Of a DNA stretch of 42,992 nt, positions 28,036 to 42,992 are shown piece after piece. The first letter of the stretch is position 1, and each line of letters begins with the position of its first letter. Position numbers and translations under genes: made by a program. Under the pieces are notes generated by a model, which ran no database searches, was not told the DNA's origin, and was given only the letters and a program-made list of their open reading frames with translations. The DNA comes from a virus: IMG/VR virus record IMGVR_UViG_3300022665_000250, positions 1 through 42,992 of that record. The stretch is one strand, 5' to 3'.

Positions 28036-28290
28036 TTAGCCGTCGCCGGAGCCGTCGCCGTAGCCGGAGCCGTAGCCGGAGCCGTCGCCGTAGCCGGAGC
28101 CGTCGCCGTAGCCGGAGCCGTAGCCGTCGCCGTAGCCGTCGCCGTCGCCGGAGCCGTAGCCGGAGCCGTCGCCGTAGCCGGAGCCGTAGCCGTCGCCGTA
28201 GCCGTCGCCGTAGCCGGAGCCGTAGCCGTAGCCGTAGCCGTCGCCGTTATGCAGGCTCACATCAAAAGCGCATAAACTAATTGACTTCAT
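28036..28290 (-). CDS. dipeptide-repeat protein: 15-aa head + G(XG)34, X = Asp(11)/Tyr(14)/Ser(9)
   Basis: The ATG has GGGAG 9 nt upstream and overlaps the end of the upstream gene by 14 nt. It is co-oriented with the operon. Gly is always GGC and X is always GAC/TAC/TCC. Confidence 0.55.
   Translation of the reverse strand: MKSISLCAFDVSLHNGDGYGYGYGSGYGDGYGDGYGSGYGDGSGYGSGDGDGYGDGYGSGYGDGSGYGDGSGYGSGYGDGSGDG
28039..28245. repeat. 34.5 tandem hexamers GCCGNN (NN = TC/GA/TA) on the plus strand
   Basis: Read directly from the sequence. All six frames lack stops, so the ORF track reports ORFs in several frames. Confidence 0.95.
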
Positions 28291-29851: not shown

Positions 29852-29895
29852 ATTACCAATAAATTACCAGTAAATTACCAGTAAATTAAGGGTGA
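29852..29895 (+). repeat. array A: 11-bp phased tandem repeats ATTACCA(A/G)TAA x3 plus a degenerate unit ATTAAGGGTGA containing the SD
   Basis: Read directly; units start at 29852, 29863, 29874 and 29885. A related copy, ATAATTACCCGG, is at 29827. Confidence 0.9.
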
Positions 29896-30308: not shown

Positions 30309-30319
30309 GAGGAAACGAG

Positions 30320-30384
30320 ATAATTACCGGATAATTACCGGATAATTACCGGATAATTACCGATAAATCACTGATAAATTAAGG
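30320..30384 (+). repeat. array B: 11-bp phased tandem repeats ATAATTACCGG x3 plus three degenerate units ending ATAAATTAAGG (SD)
   Basis: Read directly; units start at 30320, 30331, 30342, 30353, 30363 and 30374. Confidence 0.9.
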
Positions 30385-30740: not shown

Positions 30741-31355
30741 ATGAGTTTTGAAGCGGCCGCTTGGGCCATAAAACAAAAAACAAACAGGCCTATTGAAAAA
30801 TTAATTCTTATCGCTTTATGCGACTGCTATAACAAAAACAATTCAAGATGTGACCCGTCAATAATTTATCTCTCGGAAGTGGCGATATGTTCCGAGCGAC
30901 AGGCGACTAGATCTATCAACCAATTAGTTATCCAGGGATTTATATCTGCCTGTAGAAAAACAGGCAGGAGAACCAATTACAATATCAACTTAACCCCTGA
31001 CTCACAGTCACCCCACCCCCGACTCACAGTCACCCCCACCCCTGACTCACAGTCCAAAACCCCTGACTCACAGTCACCCGAACCAGTAAGAACCATTAAT
31101 TTAACCAGTAAGATACCGATACCAGATTTTATTGATAAAAAAATGTGGTCTGATTTTTTGGAGATGCGGGGAAAGAAAAAGAACTCGGATGTTTCTTTGA
31201 AGCGGATCATCAACGAACTAACGAAATTTGAAGCTAAAGGGATGGATGTGAACCAGGTGCTCAATAACTCAATCATGAGCTCATGGATCGGTGTCTTCCC
31301 AATAAAAGAATTCAAATTAGACAATCAACCACCTGCGAGGATTGTAGGCCGATGA
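30741..31355 (+). CDS. replication initiator (lambda O-like, N-terminal winged-HTH) containing the origin iterons
   Basis: The N-terminus (AAAWAIKQKTNRPIEKLILIALCDCYN...IYLSEVAICSERQATRSINQL) looks like HTH_36-type replication proteins. It lies upstream of DnaB with an ATGA overlap and has an internal 4x repeat. Confidence 0.6.
   Translation: MSFEAAAWAIKQKTNRPIEKLILIALCDCYNKNNSRCDPSIIYLSEVAICSERQATRSINQLVIQGFISACRKTGRRTNYNINLTPDSQSPHPRLTVTPTPDSQSKTPDSQSPEPVRTINLTSKIPIPDFIDKKMWSDFLEMRGKKKNSDVSLKRIINELTKFEAKGMDVNQVLNNSIMSSWIGVFPIKEFKLDNQPPARIVGR
30994..31113. repeat. putative origin: four ~20-bp iterons CCCCTGACTCACAGTCACC(C) at ~22-bp spacing, then AT-rich DNA with 2x AACCAGTAAGA
   Basis: GACTCACAGTC cores at 30999, 31021, 31044 and 31065, each with GACT/AGTC dyad symmetry. 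AACCAGTAAGA occurs at 31081 and 31103. The architecture resembles ori-lambda inside gene O. Confidence 0.55.
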
Positions 31356-34599: not shown

Positions 34600-34944
34600 A
34601 TGAAACCAGAAACAATGATGATTGATGATGTGAAATACGTGCGCGAAGACTCAATAAAAGTATTCGCGCTGCCTGATGGAGATTTTTCTCCTTGGGAAAC
34701 AGGCGAGGAATATCACATCGAAACAGCAACTAAGTATTATCTCGGAAGATTGATACTGGTCACAGACAAGGAATTAGTTGTTGACGGTGCTTCATGGGTG
34801 GCCGATACAGGTAGATTTAACGAGTACCTGAGCGGAAGCAACCCAAGCGAGAATGAACCCTACCAAAAAGGATCGGCGCTGATAATTAGTAGAGGCGCAT
34901 TGGTCTCGGCAGTTAAACGCGAAATCATAATTGAGGTTATCTGA
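34600..34944 (+). CDS. conserved phage protein of unknown function (ASWVADTGRF type)
   Basis: 114 aa. YYLGRLILVTDKELVVDGASWVADTGRFNEYLSG...EPY recalls a widespread phage DUF. Confidence 0.6.
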   Translation: MKPETMMIDDVKYVREDSIKVFALPDGDFSPWETGEEYHIETATKYYLGRLILVTDKELVVDGASWVADTGRFNEYLSGSNPSENEPYQKGSALIISRGALVSAVKREIIIEVI

Positions 34945-35180
34945 TGAACGCCGTGATGCTGCGAGAAGGTTATTTAGGGTCTGGGTCTAGGTCTTGGTCT
35001 TGGTCTGGGTCTAGGTCTGGGTCTAGGTCTGGGTCTAGGTCTGGGTCTAGGTCTTGGTCTGGGTCTGGGTCTGGGTCTGGGTCTAGGTCTGGGTCTAGGT
35101 CTGGGTCTAGGTCTTGGTCTGGGTCTAGGTCTGGGTCTAGGTCTTGGTCTTGGTCTGGGTCTGGGTCTAGGTCTGGGTAA
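34944..35180 (+). CDS. dipeptide-repeat protein: 11-aa head + (XS)33-G, X = Gly(17)/Arg(11)/Trp(6)
   Basis: The ATG overlaps the upstream stop (TGATG), with GAGG 7 nt upstream. It is co-oriented with the operon and followed by a terminator. The frame choice remains uncertain because other frames are also open. Confidence 0.5.
   Translation: MNAVMLREGYLGSGSRSWSWSGSRSGSRSGSRSGSRSWSGSGSGSGSRSGSRSGSRSWSGSRSGSRSWSWSGSGSRSG
34977..35177. repeat. 33.5 tandem hexamers NGGTCT (N = G 17, A 11, T 6, C 0)
   Basis: Read directly from the sequence. Four consecutive GGGTCT units at 35061-35084 form a G3N3 quadruplex motif on the plus strand. Confidence 0.95.
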
Positions 35181-35722: not shown

Positions 35723-36163
35723 ATGGATTTTGTAATTCAGCCGAATGAACTCAGGGAAAGTGTAAAACGCAACGTGTGCGCTCACATAGACGCCCTGGAG
35801 GCCGATAAGCCTTGGCTGGTAACTGTCTCTAGGTTAGTCAAGCAACGCTCAGGATTGCAACGAAAGGCCTTGTGGGGCGTTGCTTACAAGGTCATCTGCG
35901 ACGAAACGGGTTACAAAGATCAGGATTTGCATGTTTTGTTGTGTGGTGAGTACTTTGGCTGGCAGGTTAAAGACATGTTCGGGAACAAAAAACGAGTGCC
36001 AGTGAGGACGACGACACAGGATGAGGCCGGCAATCGGGATGTGATATCTCGCCAGGAATGCGGCAAATATTATGACTTTATACAGAGATTTGCGGCTGAA
36101 TACTCGGTTGACGTTCCTGATCCTGATCCAGCATGGAGATTCAAATCTAAAGGTGATGAATAA
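35723..36163 (+). CDS. NinB/Orf-family recombination protein-like
   Basis: KQRSGLQRKALWGVAYKVICDETG resembles the NinB RS..QN..LW motif. Confidence 0.5.
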   Translation: MDFVIQPNELRESVKRNVCAHIDALEADKPWLVTVSRLVKQRSGLQRKALWGVAYKVICDETGYKDQDLHVLLCGEYFGWQVKDMFGNKKRVPVRTTTQDEAGNRDVISRQECGKYYDFIQRFAAEYSVDVPDPDPAWRFKSKGDE

Positions 36164-36483
36164 TGGATTATTGGAAAGAATGCATAGAGGAAGCTTTCGA
36201 AGATTCTGGAATTGTTGCAACAGAATCTCAGATAGAAAATGTAATTTCTGCGGTAAAAGGCGCGCATGAGAATTACGGAACGGCGACTGGCGAGGAATTA
36301 ATATCTAATCCTGTCGAATTGCAGGCAGATAAAGATCTTCGCAATCTCCAGCGGGAAATTGATCGGCGAGAAAAGTGGGAAAGGGACACTCAAGTATGCC
36401 CCGTATGCATGACGACAGGGAGTTCGCTAGGTTCCATTATTTGCTATAAATGCAGTGGTAAAGGCAGGATTATTAGAAGCTAA
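36163..36483 (+). CDS. hypothetical protein with C-terminal CxxC...CxxCxGxG zinc finger
   Basis: CPVCMTTGS...CYKCSGKGRI is a DnaJ-type zinc-finger pattern. ATGA-type overlap with the upstream gene. Confidence 0.5.
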   Translation: MDYWKECIEEAFEDSGIVATESQIENVISAVKGAHENYGTATGEELISNPVELQADKDLRNLQREIDRREKWERDTQVCPVCMTTGSSLGSIICYKCSGKGRIIRS

Positions 36484-36495
36484 GAGGCGAAGTAG

Positions 36496-36747
36496 ATGAT
36501 AAATGAAGCAACTGCGAGAAATTATAGTCTAGATGAGATGGTGAGGATAAACGAGCCGTGGTGCGCTACTGAGATTTATAGGCGACTGCAGGAAGAACCT
36601 AATATTGTTGTGGATGTGTCTGGATATTACACTCAGGATGAATACGAAGATGCAGGTCTTGACGAGTATGATCGCGGGATACGAGAGGGATATAGCGAGG
36701 GATACAAAGACAAATCTGACGGCAAGAAAAACAGGGATGAGTTTTAA
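36496..36747 (+). CDS. hypothetical acidic protein
   Basis: 83-aa ORF. Confidence 0.45.
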   Translation: MINEATARNYSLDEMVRINEPWCATEIYRRLQEEPNIVVDVSGYYTQDEYEDAGLDEYDRGIREGYSEGYKDKSDGKKNRDEF

Positions 36748-36749
36748 TC

Positions 36750-36941
36750 ATGGAGTGGGGACCAACGATACGCGGGCCATCAGGCGGGATCAAAAGGATG
36801 CCTCAAACCAAGCACAATATCGTGATATTGGTGCGTGATCCGGGCTATATCGACCGCACTCGCTCCAGGGAGCCGCTTTCTAGTAATCAGACGCGACTCG
36901 CTCTAGAAAGGCAACGAGATAGGGCTTTGAATGGAAAGTAA
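36750..36941 (+). CDS. hypothetical protein
   Basis: 63-aa ORF. Its 3' end (LERQRDRALNGK) is duplicated at the 3' end of the HD hydrolase gene. Confidence 0.4.
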   Translation: MEWGPTIRGPSGGIKRMPQTKHNIVILVRDPGYIDRTRSREPLSSNQTRLALERQRDRALNGK

Positions 36942-36968
36942 AACAATTCGCCGAACGAGGATAGCTGG

Positions 36969-37516
36969 ATGAATTCAAAATTGATTGAAAAGCCCTTATT
37001 TATGCTACTGCGGCTCATCAAGCGGTCGGGCAGCTAAGGAAGTACACAGGTGCGCCGTATATTGTTCATCCGATTGAAGTATCTCGCATTGTTGAGGATG
37101 TCGGCGGCACAGAAGATATGATTTGTGCTGCTCTACTACATGATGTCGTCGAAGACACGAAAATAACCTCAAGACAAATATGGGAACAATTCGGGTCAAA
37201 TGTTTCCAACTACGTTTACTGGTTGACTGACAAGTCAAGGCCTTCGGACGGGAACAGGAAGGTGCGCAAGGAAATAGACAGAGATCATATTTCTAGCGCT
37301 CCGGCGGAAGCAAAAACGATCAAGCTTGCTGATTTGATTTGCAACACAAGGTCAATTGTTGCTCATGACCCGAAATTCGCAAAAGTTTATTTAGAGGAAA
37401 AAGGGTTGCTATTAAATGTATTGAAAGAAGGCAATGCTCATCTATATGAGCTTGCTCGTAATACTTGGTTGCGTGGGCTTGAAGGACAACGGGATAGGAG
37501 TTTGGATGCAAAGTAA
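36969..37516 (+). pseudogene. SpoT/Mesh1-type HD-domain (p)ppGpp hydrolase (small alarmone hydrolase) interrupted by a 1-nt frameshift at 36988-36991
   Basis: ATG 36969 encodes MNSKLIEK and then runs into a stop at 37035. The -1 frame continues ALIYATAAHQAVGQLRKYTGAPYIVHPIEV...AALLHDVVEDT...KLADLICN, the full HD_4 motif set. One extra A in the A4 run would fuse the two frames. The ORF track reports only the truncated 37118 start. Confidence 0.75.
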
Positions 37517-37853
37517 AAATAATGCGCCGAATGTGGCTCAAAAGCGGTGGCGAGAGGAGGTCAGGGGGCTGGGCAGCATAGTTTCTTTGAGTGGTTATTA
37601 TGGCCGGACGGTAATTCACCACCCGGTCGGCCAGTCGGCAAAAATAAAAGGGGTTGGCAACATTGGCAACTGGTGGGTCATTCCGTTGACCGAGGACCTC
37701 CATGAGGATCTGCACAACGGCGAAAAGTTCGGCTTTGAAACTCGGAAGGAGTGGGAAAAATATATGTTTGCCGATGTGATGAAGAAATTATATGGTCATC
37801 CAGATTCGCCAAGCGACGAGGTTTTGGCTGCGATCAGAGATTATAGGCGGTGA
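37506..37853 (+). CDS. HNH/His-Me-finger-like protein (Ref/DUF968-like)
   Basis: I prefer ATG 37506, which has GGAG upstream. VIHHPVGQS...NWWVIPLTEDLHEDLHNG is only a weak family resemblance. Confidence 0.35.
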   Translation: MQSKNNAPNVAQKRWREEVRGLGSIVSLSGYYGRTVIHHPVGQSAKIKGVGNIGNWWVIPLTEDLHEDLHNGEKFGFETRKEWEKYMFADVMKKLYGHPDSPSDEVLAAIRDYRR

Positions 37854-38194
37854 ACCAGGCAGAAACCCTATTAAAAATTCATCTAACGGAAGAAAAAATC
37901 CCATTTGAAACAGAGGTGGAGCTTGTAGATAACCGAAAGTTTCGATGGGATTTTGTCATAGGCAAACTGGCGGTCGAGATTCAAGGCGGTATCTGGCGCA
38001 AGAAAGGGGCGCACAATACCGGGTCAGCTATTATGCGTGATTGTGTGAAATGCAGATTGGCCGTAAATGCTGGTTATATTCCGGTTTTCTTTGTCACTTC
38101 TGAGGTTTTGGACGGCACGGCAATTAAGTGGATTAAGAATTATCGTGAGCATAGATGGGATTTTGTTGCCGGCCAGTCACTTTTCGTCATCTAA
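37850..38194 (+). CDS. PD-(D/E)XK endonuclease (Vsr/DUF559-like)
   Basis: FRWDFVIGKLAVEIQGGIW...D..K pattern. It is the last gene of the early-right operon. Confidence 0.5.
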   Translation: MNQAETLLKIHLTEEKIPFETEVELVDNRKFRWDFVIGKLAVEIQGGIWRKKGAHNTGSAIMRDCVKCRLAVNAGYIPVFFVTSEVLDGTAIKWIKNYREHRWDFVAGQSLFVI

Positions 38195-38219
38195 CGAGCA
38201 AAAGTGCTGTTTTTGGCGT

Positions 38220-38248
38220 TTGTGTAAAATTGACGACAACGGTAGAAT
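38220..38248 (+). promoter_or_regulatory. candidate promoter for the late/packaging operon
   Basis: TTGTGT, 17-nt spacer, TAGAAT, in the 325-bp gap before the small terminase gene. Confidence 0.3.
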
Positions 38249-38364
38249 GGGGGCTGTAGAGGATTGAGTGCCAGTATTCACGGGTTTATATAAAAGTAAT
38301 CTCCCCTTAGTTGATTTCGATGAAATATGATAGAATTAGCTAATGACGATAAATAATTATCAAA

Positions 38365-38520
38365 GTGAATGCCTATTTGTACAGCTACAAGGGCGAGCCG
38401 GTAGAGGTAATTGCCCAGTCAGATAAAGTTGATCTTATCCAGATCGGCGACAGGGTTGTGCTCGTCAAAAAAGAATCCAAAAAATCACCTAAATTGAGAT
38501 TGATTAAAAAGGCAACATAA
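38365..38520 (+). CDS. 51-aa hypothetical protein (GTG start)
   Basis: The frame is open and ends in a TAATG overlap with the small terminase start. There is no SD, so support is weak. Confidence 0.25.
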   Translation: MNAYLYSYKGEPVEVIAQSDKVDLIQIGDRVVLVKKESKKSPKLRLIKKAT

Positions 38521-38918
38521 TGCCCGCAGGAAGACCGTTATTAGAGATAACCCCAGCGCTATGCGAAAAAGCTGAAACCCTTGCTGGTAAAGGGTTGACT
38601 ATTAATCAGATAGCACTATCACTCGGAATGGGTAAGAGCACACTGTATGATAAAAAGGCTGAATACGTGGAGTTCTCGGATGCAATAGAGAGGGGTAGAG
38701 CAAAAGGGATAGAAACTATCACGAATGCCCTATTTAAAAACGCTTCTGAAGGCGACACAGTGGCCCAGAAATATTATCTCAACAACAGGGATAATGATAA
38801 CTGGAAAGACCGGATACATAGCAACACTGAGCACACAGGGGAAGTCACCCATGTTGTTATGTCGGCAGATGAATACAAAAAAGCTCGTGAAGAAATGCTA
38901 AATGACGATGAATGCTAA
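38520..38918 (+). CDS. terminase small subunit
   Basis: 132 aa with an N-terminal HTH (GLTINQIALSLGMGKSTLY). It lies immediately upstream of, and overlaps, the large terminase gene. Confidence 0.7.
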   Translation: MPAGRPLLEITPALCEKAETLAGKGLTINQIALSLGMGKSTLYDKKAEYVEFSDAIERGRAKGIETITNALFKNASEGDTVAQKYYLNNRDNDNWKDRIHSNTEHTGEVTHVVMSADEYKKAREEMLNDDEC

Positions 38919-40398
38919 GCATGTTTTTGCTAGGCGCGCTGAGTGCGCAGAAGACGGGTTGTATTTCAATCGGTATTTCTTCAAGCAGCGATTCGGCACG
39001 AAAATGGTCATTGGACGACATCATGTCGTTATTCAACGCGCACTTGACCGGACAATGCTGCCTCCTGACCACCCTGATTTTATATCCCGATTAATAATCA
39101 ACGTTTCTCCCGGCTATTCAAAAACCGAACAGTGCTCAATTAACTACATGGCCAGAGGGCTGGCTATTAACCCAATGGCTCGTTTCCTGCATTTGTCCTA
39201 CTCAGACAGATTAGTAATGTTAAACAGCAGCACAAGTCGAGAGATTGTAAAGTCATCAGATTTTCAGGGCATGTGGCCTGTCGGCATTAAAAACGACACT
39301 GATAGTAAAAAGATTTGGCACACTGATGACAATGGCGGCATTACGGCAACGGCTGCAGGCGGGCAGGTGACAGGCTTTAGAGCCGGCCATATGGATTACA
39401 GCAAGTTTACTGGATCTTTGATCATTGATGATCCAGTAAAGCCTGATGACGCATACAGTGAGACTATCAGGAAGGCAGTCAATAACGCTTACAATGAGAC
39501 AATAGCTAGTCGATTGGCTATTGAGACGATACCGATCATTGTCGTCATGCAGCGGATACACTGGGATGATTTGAGCGGTTATTTGTTAAGAGGCGGATCG
39601 GGTGAAGATTGGTATCACCTCAATCTCCCTGTGATTATTGATAACAGGGAAAAATATCCAAAAGAATATACCCACGGTATCCCCATAGATCACGGTCTTG
39701 AAGACGGCTGGTTGTGGCCCTTTAAACATAACGCAAAACATGAAAAAGCGCTAAAGTCTCACCGACGCCGGTATGCTGCACAATACAAACAAAAACCGAT
39801 TAAACGCGATGAAGAAACGAGTTTATGGCCAGAAAAGTTAATCGCCAAGGCCAGGGCTTTGGATATCACTACGCAGCCCATTAGGACGATTGTCGCTGTT
39901 GACCCTGCAACTACAAATACTGAAACATCTGATTATCACGGCATTATTGTCGGCAGTGAATATCCTGACAATAAATACAGCATCGACGCTGACTACACAC
40001 GCAAAGGATCGCCGCTGACCTGGGCTGAGGCGACGATTGCCGCTGTTGATCAACATGATGCTGATGCAGTGGTCATTGAGACCAATCAGGGCGGCGACAT
40101 GTGCGAATCGAATCTGCGTAACGCCGGATATACTGGGCGCGTGATTAGAGTGACAGCAAAAAAAGGCAAAACGCTACGCGCTGAACCGGTTGTCGCGTTG
40201 TATGAGTTGGGGCTTGTAAAACATAAAGCGGGATTGTCAGCGACTGAAGACGAAATGATGGATTTTGACCCTGTAACACAGAAATCAGGCGGAGAATCCC
40301 CTAACAGGGTTGATGCGGCAGTCTATGTACTGTCTGAGTTGTCAGGTGTAGACTCAGACCTCGGAACATTACTGAAAATGGCAATGGGGGCGAATTAA
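38902..40398 (+). CDS. terminase large subunit
   Basis: 498 aa with the Walker A-like VSPGYSKTE, Walker B LIIDDP and a C-terminal RNaseH-like nuclease region (AVDPA...VIETNQGGD). Confidence 0.85.
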   Translation: MTMNAKHVFARRAECAEDGLYFNRYFFKQRFGTKMVIGRHHVVIQRALDRTMLPPDHPDFISRLIINVSPGYSKTEQCSINYMARGLAINPMARFLHLSYSDRLVMLNSSTSREIVKSSDFQGMWPVGIKNDTDSKKIWHTDDNGGITATAAGGQVTGFRAGHMDYSKFTGSLIIDDPVKPDDAYSETIRKAVNNAYNETIASRLAIETIPIIVVMQRIHWDDLSGYLLRGGSGEDWYHLNLPVIIDNREKYPKEYTHGIPIDHGLEDGWLWPFKHNAKHEKALKSHRRRYAAQYKQKPIKRDEETSLWPEKLIAKARALDITTQPIRTIVAVDPATTNTETSDYHGIIVGSEYPDNKYSIDADYTRKGSPLTWAEATIAAVDQHDADAVVIETNQGGDMCESNLRNAGYTGRVIRVTAKKGKTLRAEPVVALYELGLVKHKAGLSATEDEMMDFDPVTQKSGGESPNRVDAAVYVLSELSGVDSDLGTLLKMAMGAN

Positions 40399-42401: not shown

Positions 42402-42992
42402 ATGTACACAGCGGAACAGGTACAGCAGTTAGTCGATAACATGCGAGCCAATAGCCACACTGACTCAAGCATACGCAGTCGTATAGGAGCTATCATCAGT
42501 GGAGGCTATGACGCTGCGGACACTTTGCACAACATCTATTTAGATTTTGGCTATCCCTGCACGCTCAATTTCCACAATTATTGGAACATGTATCGCCGGT
42601 TTGGCATTGCTAAAAATGTTGTCGAGTTGGCGCCCAATACTGGTTGGAGCACATCGCCAGAAATTATCGGTACTGACCCATTCAACAGTGACTTTGAAAA
42701 GATGGTTAAATCCGTTGATTTTTGGACTAGGATGAAGGGGCTTGATATTCGTCAACGCGTTGGCCGTTATGCTGGCATTTTCATGCGGGTCAAGGACGGC
42801 CAACAACCAAGCGAGCCTATTGACGGGACTTTGTCAGGTATTAACAGTCTGGTTGAGATGATGCCGTTGTACGAATCTCAACTTGATGTCGTCGAAACTA
42901 ATCAAGATCCCACATCAGAGGATTTCGGTCAGCCGAAAATGTATCAATTCAGCGGAGGAGTGGCAGGCACGCGGAATGAAGAGGTCAACAGG
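42402..42992 (+). CDS. portal protein, 5' part (continues at nt 145 via the duplicated end; full gene = 42402..42848 + 1..903, about 449 aa)
   Basis: I translated this frame by hand with no stop through to the window end. It joins the frame of ORF 10..903. An alternative GTG start at 42342 overlaps the upstream stop. The ORF track misses it because it has no in-window stop. Confidence 0.8.
   Translation, partial: MYTAEQVQQLVDNMRANSHTDSSIRSRIGAIISGGYDAADTLHNIYLDFGYPCTLNFHNYWNMYRRFGIAKNVVELAPNTGWSTSPEIIGTDPFNSDFEKMVKSVDFWTRMKGLDIRQRVGRYAGIFMRVKDGQQPSEPIDGTLSGINSLVEMMPLYESQLDVVETNQDPTSEDFGQPKMYQFSGGVAGTRNEEVNR
42849..42992. repeat. 144-bp exact duplicate of nt 1-144 (circular-assembly overlap or terminal redundancy)
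   Basis: Compared base by base; the two copies are identical. Confidence 0.95.

Follow-up and report, generated by a model that had tools for sequence, protein, structure and literature searches.

A predicted small alarmone hydrolase gene, one base short of an open frame, at a duplicated gene junction in an uncultivated temperate phage

The DNA analyzed here, IMG/VR virus record IMGVR_UViG_3300022665_000250 (the window, by which we mean the whole stretch of 42,992 nucleotides), is a complete lambdoid-type temperate phage genome of ~42.85 kb with 44% GC, from an uncultivated phage. The contig closes on itself, in that bases 1-144 are exactly the same as 42849-42992 (144 bp, inside an ORF at 10-903), and the window is thus a circularly closed contig of ~42,848 bp that probably represents a complete phage genome from a graph assembly; it is from the terminal overlap alone that we infer that the assembly was of short reads. 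ORFs cover 93% of the contig and encode, among others, an O-like initiator with internal repeats and a DnaB-like helicase. The gene under study, a predicted alarmone hydrolase gene, lies in the nin-like late-early region, and the landmarks of this part of the genome are as follows:

around 28.3-29.0 kb: divergent early region
35723-36163: NinB-like gene
38520-40398: terminase genes

The large terminase is 72-77% identical to proteins on metagenome-assembled genome (MAG) contigs whose taxonomy is inconsistent; its identity to those of Vibrio and Pseudomonas phages is 58-60%. Its closest relatives (L018, L040, and L041) sit on contigs of 3-43 kb that were binned to MAGs from unrelated phyla (Phycisphaerales, 'Ca. 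Sabulitectum', and Alphaproteobacteria); these are probably mis-binned phage contigs that give no reliable clue to the host.

The hydrolase locus is divided between two reading frames on the plus strand, with the following features:

36957..36961, + strand: Shine-Dalgarno-like GAGGA, 7 nt upstream of ATG 36969, read directly from the sequence
36969..37037, + strand: hydrolase 5' fragment as read from the start codon, beginning with the family-like MNSKLIEK and continuing out of frame as PLFMLLRLIKRSGS up to a stop
36987..36994, + strand: frameshift site GAAAAGCC, one base short relative to the family reading frame, with an A_AAG tetramer at 36989-36992
36989..37516, + strand: hydrolase gene body in the -1 frame, 175 codons plus the stop TAA at 37514-16, open throughout
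37118..37516, + strand: the sole HD-frame ORF with a conventional start, 132 aa, beginning at Met51 of the rebuilt protein

Translation from ATG 36969-71 (MNSKLIEKPLFM...) runs for 22 codons, in full MNSKLIEKPLFMLLRLIKRSGS, and ends at TAA 37035-37. The HD frame, which is displaced by -1 (equivalently +2) relative to ATG 36969, reads KID, a stop (TGA at 36986-88), then KALIYATAAHQAVGQLRKYTGAPYIVHP and, farther on, AALLHDVVEDT and KLADLICN, ending in DAK before its own stop. In the numbering of the rebuilt 182-aa protein, the body carries the RKYT motif, H34, H58-D59, E62-D63, and D122...N126. Examination of 36989-37118 found no ATG, GTG, or TTG in the HD frame upstream of ATG 37118, and nothing before that ATG is a Shine-Dalgarno-like motif comparable to the GAGGA of ATG 36969. 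Two other candidate starts were considered and dismissed: GTG 37050 is out of frame, and ATT 36998 is in frame but lacks a Shine-Dalgarno sequence. As sequenced, the gene thus offers no uninterrupted frame from a start codon through the whole HD domain, and the recorded product of the contig (P0001) is the 132-aa ORF, without R24, K25, Y26, and H34, i.e., without the RKYT motif and the first metal-binding His. The earlier note on this DNA had placed the ATG 36969 start outside the HD frame, with TGA 36986 behind it and no start before Met 37118, itself downstream of the first catalytic His; on re-reading of the frames all of this holds, since the 132-aa ORF starts at residue 51 and lacks H34.

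One base added within GAAAAGCC yields a rebuilt protein of 182 aa. In an alignment with 19 homologues, LIEK of the start-codon frame (residues 5-8) and ALIYATAAH of the -1 frame together rebuild, gap-free, the N-terminus typical of the family (xLVE[RK]AxxFATAAH), and the alignment positions the break between codons 7 and 9. In a tblastn comparison, residues 7-163 of one homologue (P0004) matched the -1 frame only, from 36989 on. The earlier note had proposed that one added A restores the family N-terminus; the single base and its position are borne out by the 19 homologues, but the base need not be an A. Missing at codon 8/9, it could have come from GAA AAA GCC (A5 to A4) or from GAA AAG GCC (GG to G), both of which give the observed sequence, so that the one-base-longer forms of the site are GAAAAAGCC and GAAAAGGCC as against the observed GAAAAGCC. 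Beyond the shift, the 175 codons of the hydrolase body contain no internal stop, and of the 55 columns invariant across the 19 homologues the rebuilt protein preserves 54, the exception being S80 in place of A. Since the family N-terminus can be rebuilt and all but one of the invariant columns are kept, there is only a single lesion. A decayed pseudogene would have several lesions or would have lost conserved residues, whereas this gene has one frameshift only. Read from its sequence, then, either the hydrolase gene is in truth intact or it was broken very recently, and as a pseudogene it would have to be very young.

By its sequence and its predicted fold, the rebuilt protein is clearly a predicted stand-alone small alarmone hydrolase (SAH) of the RelA/SpoT-homologue (RSH) superfamily. 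It matched Pfam HD_4 (PF13328) at 61.5 bits against a cutoff of 27.2 (E=1e-16; residues 9-135 on profile positions 1-132 of 156), phrog_990 ('metal-dependent phosphohydrolase') at 4e-39, and the first 123 positions of the RelA/SpoT model TIGR00691 at 8.6e-23. Among proteins of solved structure, the best sequence matches were Lmo0812, human and fly MESH1, RelSeq, SpoT, and several SAHs. Only HD_4 and HD were detected in the 182 aa, with no synthetase, TGS, or ACT domain, and no RSH match was found in the ORFs neighboring the hydrolase gene, as befits a single-domain enzyme. An AlphaFold model of the 175 window-encoded residues, for which 31 homologues were used, had a pLDDT of 96.0 and a pTM of 0.91, and its top fold matches in the PDB were MESH1 (TM 0.82-0.83, rmsd 2.0-2.2), C. 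glutamicum RelH (TM 0.81-0.84), and the P. aeruginosa SAH PaSAH (TM 0.75). In alignments with MESH1 and RelSeq, R24-K25, H34, H58-D59, E62-D63, and D122/N126 fall in the matching blocks, and their columns are invariant among the homologues; the Mn2+-binding residues of MESH1 are taken to be those of its published structure. The assignment to the Mesh1/SpoT-type family made in the earlier note is upheld by the HD_4 score of 61.5 bits, by phrog_990, TIGR00691, and the solved-structure matches, and by a MESH1 fold at TM 0.83. An intact version would be predicted to hydrolyze (p)ppGpp or (p)ppApp, or else what toxSAS toxins produce.

A protein search over 5.8 billion proteins returned 3714 relatives. 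Besides the window's own 132-aa product, the best of them are 60-68% identical and 165-184 aa long among the matches listed; some sit on contigs of hundreds of kb (0.3-1.1 Mb), and at this contig size those relatives are cellular genes. A comparison of orthologues had been proposed in the earlier note; in the comparison with homologues, each of the 19 aligned begins with the full N-terminus, and the other homologues are 165-184 aa without exception (119 of 119 among the matches listed), none being short like the 132-aa ORF. Most aligned homologues end near residue 169 of the query, ~13 residues before the C-terminus of the window protein. Relatives of the hydrolase are also encoded in 271 records of the phage collection. 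The product P0001 itself forms a cluster of one member on one contig, and a look-up of the exact product found no other record.

The neighborhood of the gene bears on how it came to lie where it does. An imperfect direct repeat of ~58 nt flanks the hydrolase gene, with 36903-36960 and 37478-37536 sharing ~80% identity (80-81%) at a spacing of 575/576 and with one 1-nt offset (repeat families D1 and D3). The features of the junction are:

36750..36941, + strand: orf63, the upstream neighbor, no family match
36903..36960, + strand: left repeat copy, consisting of the true orf63 3' end (...LERQRDRALNGK, stop) and a decayed orf115 start
36931..36972, + strand: remnant mini-ORF MESKTIRRTRIAG, 13 codons, a duplicate of the orf115 start MQSKNNAPNVAQ that has decayed; the TGA of the mini-ORF and the hydrolase ATG overlap in ATGA
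37478..37536, + strand: right repeat copy, consisting of the last 12 hydrolase codons (LEGQRDRSLDAK, stop) and the true orf115 start (ATG 37506, AGGAG at 37496-37500)
37506..37853, + strand: orf115, the downstream neighbor, 115 aa, no Pfam or PHROG match

The hydrolase tail LEGQRDRSLDAK mirrors the orf63 end LERQRDRALNGK and is absent from most homologues. Because the junction is duplicated on either side of the hydrolase gene, we conclude that the gene was inserted at an overlapping orf63/orf115 junction. Such an insertion would have duplicated ~58 nt of the junction, and it would have left the hydrolase start coupled through ATGA to the mini-ORF and the hydrolase C-terminus fused to a copy of the orf63 tail. 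An insertion between neighboring genes with duplication of their junction is what marks an inserted accessory gene of the moron type, and that is what is found here. Within 36300-38300, no plus-strand promoter-like site and no terminator-like site flanks the hydrolase, and the gene appears to be read as part of an operon, set up for translation in a chain of coupled ORFs. What is new at this locus is the insertion at a gene junction with a flanking direct repeat, a small new detail that the earlier note had missed.

Relatives of the two neighbors are scarce. A search for relatives of orf63 found none, and a search of metagenome contigs found none of orf115. IMG/VR contains one orf115 relative (L017, 4001-4336), at 56% identity and with the same MQSKNNAP start, which confirms the orf115 start at ATG 37506. 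In L017, the orf115 homologue has another gene upstream and no hydrolase gene, and it adjoins a DNA methyltransferase-like gene instead. No homologue of the hydrolase, orf63, or orf115 was found near the terminase in 37 TerL-related loci from bacterial genomes and MAGs. We also observed a conserved pattern in orf115, KRWRE...HHPVG...WWVIPLT..H..LHNG.

How the missing base is to be read depends on whether the locus still gives rise to a product and on whether the base is missing from the phage DNA at all. The earlier note had offered a sequencing error, a fresh inactivation, and low-level -1 recoding; this was the right set, but recoding has to be marked down, as the site has neither a slippery heptamer nor downstream structure and is not conserved. 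If the frameshift is real and is decoded, some ribosomes would slip by -1 on A_AAG and give a small, possibly tuned, output of hydrolase, either as a programmed slip or as a tolerated 'saviour' slip. Re-pairing of tRNA-Lys from AAG (36990-92) to AAA (36989-91) lands exactly in the HD frame with no intervening stop, the gene is without decay, and in E. coli no tetramer shifts by -1 more readily than A_AA.G, for which 5.6% was measured in the presence of a strong pseudoknot (PMC4066793). That value, however, required the IS3 pseudoknot, and in the same E. coli study tetramers without a stimulator stayed near background, at 0.147% against 0.112% (Sharma et al., 2014; PMC4066793). No stimulator is apparent at the site. 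The X_XXY_YYZ heptamer is absent, since the site is U_GAA_AAG and a P-site tRNA-Glu is unable to re-pair on UGA; the 88 nt downstream (36993-37080) have a folding energy of -19.6 kcal/mol, where shuffles average -21.3 (z = +0.63), and fold no better than these; and a Shine-Dalgarno-like stimulator within 10-15 nt upstream is missing, the only such motif being the initiation site ~28 nt upstream. Nor is the two-frame arrangement conserved, as none of the 119 homologues is short (among the matches listed) and the 19 aligned have the full N-terminus. Programmed recoding is therefore unlikely, and a decoded shift of either kind seems to us improbable. A still narrower version, in which the base loss is genuine, has become fixed in the phage population, and is offset by low -1 slippage at A_AAG, eight codons after the start, that supplies just enough hydrolase to keep the gene perfect, we regard as more doubtful yet; if true, a temperate phage would be using a stimulator-free tetramer frameshift to keep very low the dose of an alarmone hydrolase that could damage its host. 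The chances are slimmest of all for the idea that the 132-aa ORF from Met 37118 is a real product acting as a truncated protein. No other conventional ORF of the HD frame is as long, but this one lacks residues 1-50 and with them the invariant A-H17, Q22, R24-K25-Y26-T27, and P30-Y31-x-V33-H34-P35 as well as three helices of the confident model; its ATG has no Shine-Dalgarno sequence, and the other homologues are 165-184 aa (among the matches listed), with the 19 aligned ones beginning ~50 residues earlier.

The two remaining readings agree on the protein and disagree on the DNA. We tentatively favor, at somewhat short of an even chance, a genuine and very young mutation, by which an accessory gene was freshly inactivated and no programmed recoding site arose. 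A slippage deletion in the short run would have removed the base at codon 8/9, so that ribosomes initiating at ATG 36969, the only good start, would stop after 22 codons and full-length enzyme would be made only through background -1 slippage on A_AAG, expected at a level of ~0.1%. On this account, the deletion would lie in the DNA and not in the assembly. The contrary account, that the phage DNA in fact contains an additional base (A5 or GG) and carries an ordinary intact SAH gene of 182 codons, the loss being an artefact of assembly or sequencing, has in our view a substantial and only slightly smaller share of the probability. Such an error would look just like this lesion, one base lost from a short homopolymer or dinucleotide run; the rest of the gene is perfect, with 54 of 55 invariant columns, an open frame, and a good Shine-Dalgarno sequence and start; and the sequence is known from one contig only. 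Against an artefact, the 43-kb contig shows no second broken gene. In the ORF map and the families scanned, no other gene is broken; the replication initiator, the DnaB-like helicase, the terminase subunits, and the other genes scanned are full length; and 49 of the 73 long homopolymer runs (A/T of at least 6, G/C of at least 5) lie well within long ORFs whose frames are unbroken. With its long runs intact and the scanned genes full length, the assembly is not visibly prone to indels. To our knowledge, A4/A5 runs are not a typical failure point of short reads. A real change is favored, too, by the exact 144-bp overlap with which the contig closes, of the sort that graph assembly of short reads yields, and by the 93% ORF coverage. 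This indirect evidence leans slightly toward a real change.

Further copies of the locus were sought in several collections. No public sequencing run containing 36700-37700 was found; one marine sediment metagenome run (X1) had a 7% word share with the packaging region, as a distant relative would, and did not cover 36006-38677. In Megablast searches of 50,697 phage records, neither 36500-38000 nor 1-25000 had a match, and none came from an exact-pattern scan of IMG/VR and JGI metagenome contigs for TTGATTGAAAA and GCCCTTATTTATGC separated by zero or one base. Among the matches listed, no relative was at least 90% identical and so fit to decide between A4 and A5.

The closest relative of known activity is the PaSpo SAH of Salmonella phage SSU5 (SSU5_099, YP_006906731.1), which is 51% identical over 151 aa and has all of the motif blocks; the relation of the window protein to the PaSpo subfamily rests on this pairwise similarity to the SSU5 member (51% over 151 aa). 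Both are phage-borne single-domain HD_4 hydrolases with the same N-terminal start pattern (ISKAHMFAAGAH against IEKALIYATAAH). In its 103-kb phage, SSU5_099 forms an unbroken ORF of 213 aa, whereas the window gene is frameshifted at codon 8/9, comes to 182 codons when rebuilt, and has a tail borrowed from the neighboring gene. The SSU5 PaSpo and PVP-SE1 PbcSpo SAHs neutralized all five toxSAS toxins tested in 2020, and the authors proposed that phage SAHs bypass alarmone-based defense (PMC7229694); SSU5 PaSpo has also served as a toxSAS antidote in work on CapRel (PMC9712102). By analogy with these enzymes, the window gene may have a role in counter-defense. That suggestion, already made in the earlier note with toxSAS in mind, is reasonable but not new, given the 2020 demonstration that phage SAHs neutralize toxSAS (PMC7229694).

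Closest overall among the matches listed are uncharacterized HD_4 proteins of 166-167 aa from marine and environmental bacteria and metagenomes (P0002, P0004, and P0078 among them), which are 60-68% identical over their full length. They have the N-terminus and all motifs in common with the window protein, and their ORFs are uninterrupted; P0078 is annotated as 'HD domain-containing protein, Alphaproteobacteria bacterium'. More distantly, MESH1/Mesh1 (human HDDC3, Drosophila CG11900), RelH, and PaSAH share the all-helical HD fold with the window model (TM 0.75-0.84 to RelH and PaSAH), and the MESH1 blocks QRRK, INHP, LLHD, VEDT, and KLADxxxN correspond to R24/K25, H34, H58-D59, E62-D63, and D122/N126 of the window protein. 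MESH1 and the solved SAHs are only 23-31% identical to it, and its candidate substrates are ppGpp, ppApp, NADPH, and pyrophosphorylated tRNA. As for the frameshift site, A_AAG sites of the IS3 and IS1 families have the same A_AA.G tetramer and the same direction of shift as the window (PMC4066793). Known functional Z_ZZN tetramer sites depend on a pseudoknot or hairpin downstream, and relatives have the site in common, whereas neither is true of the site in the window.

Phage SAHs are already known, and another homologue is a data point that brings no new concept. If the frameshift is real, the locus would show a counter-defense or other accessory gene caught just after its inactivation in a wild temperate phage, and it would also exemplify entry into lambdoid genomes via insertion at a gene junction that becomes duplicated in the process. 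If the missing base is an artefact, what follows is an annotation fix only, with a 182-aa protein in place of the recorded 132-aa one. Either outcome would be unsurprising to specialists.

Elsewhere in the window, several tandem repeats were observed. An ORF at 34944-35180 (+ strand), whose start overlaps the stop of the preceding gene, contains ~34 copies of the hexamer GGGTCT (tandem repeat 34977-35178) and encodes (G/R/W)S dipeptides (MNAVMLREGYLGSGSRSWSWSGSRSGSRSG...). Many contigs from an unrelated marine sediment run matched this stretch, to the very high depth of 118x, which points to simple-repeat matches and not to homology. At 28036-28290 (- strand), between two minus-strand early genes, ~17.6 copies of the 12-mer TAGCCGTAGCCG (tandem repeat 28037-28247) read on the minus strand as a Gly-Tyr-Asp/Ser-rich repeat protein (...GDGYGYGYGSGYGDGYG...). 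Upstream of the replication genes lie two sets of 11-mers, at 29852-29888 (ATTACCAGTAA, 3.4 copies) and 30319-30377 (GATAATTACCG, 4.5 copies), and a 23-mer occurs four times at 30993-31079, within the O-like initiator gene (30741-31355). In lambda, ori lies within O, and by analogy the 11-mer and 23-mer repeats look like operator or iteron and origin repeats.
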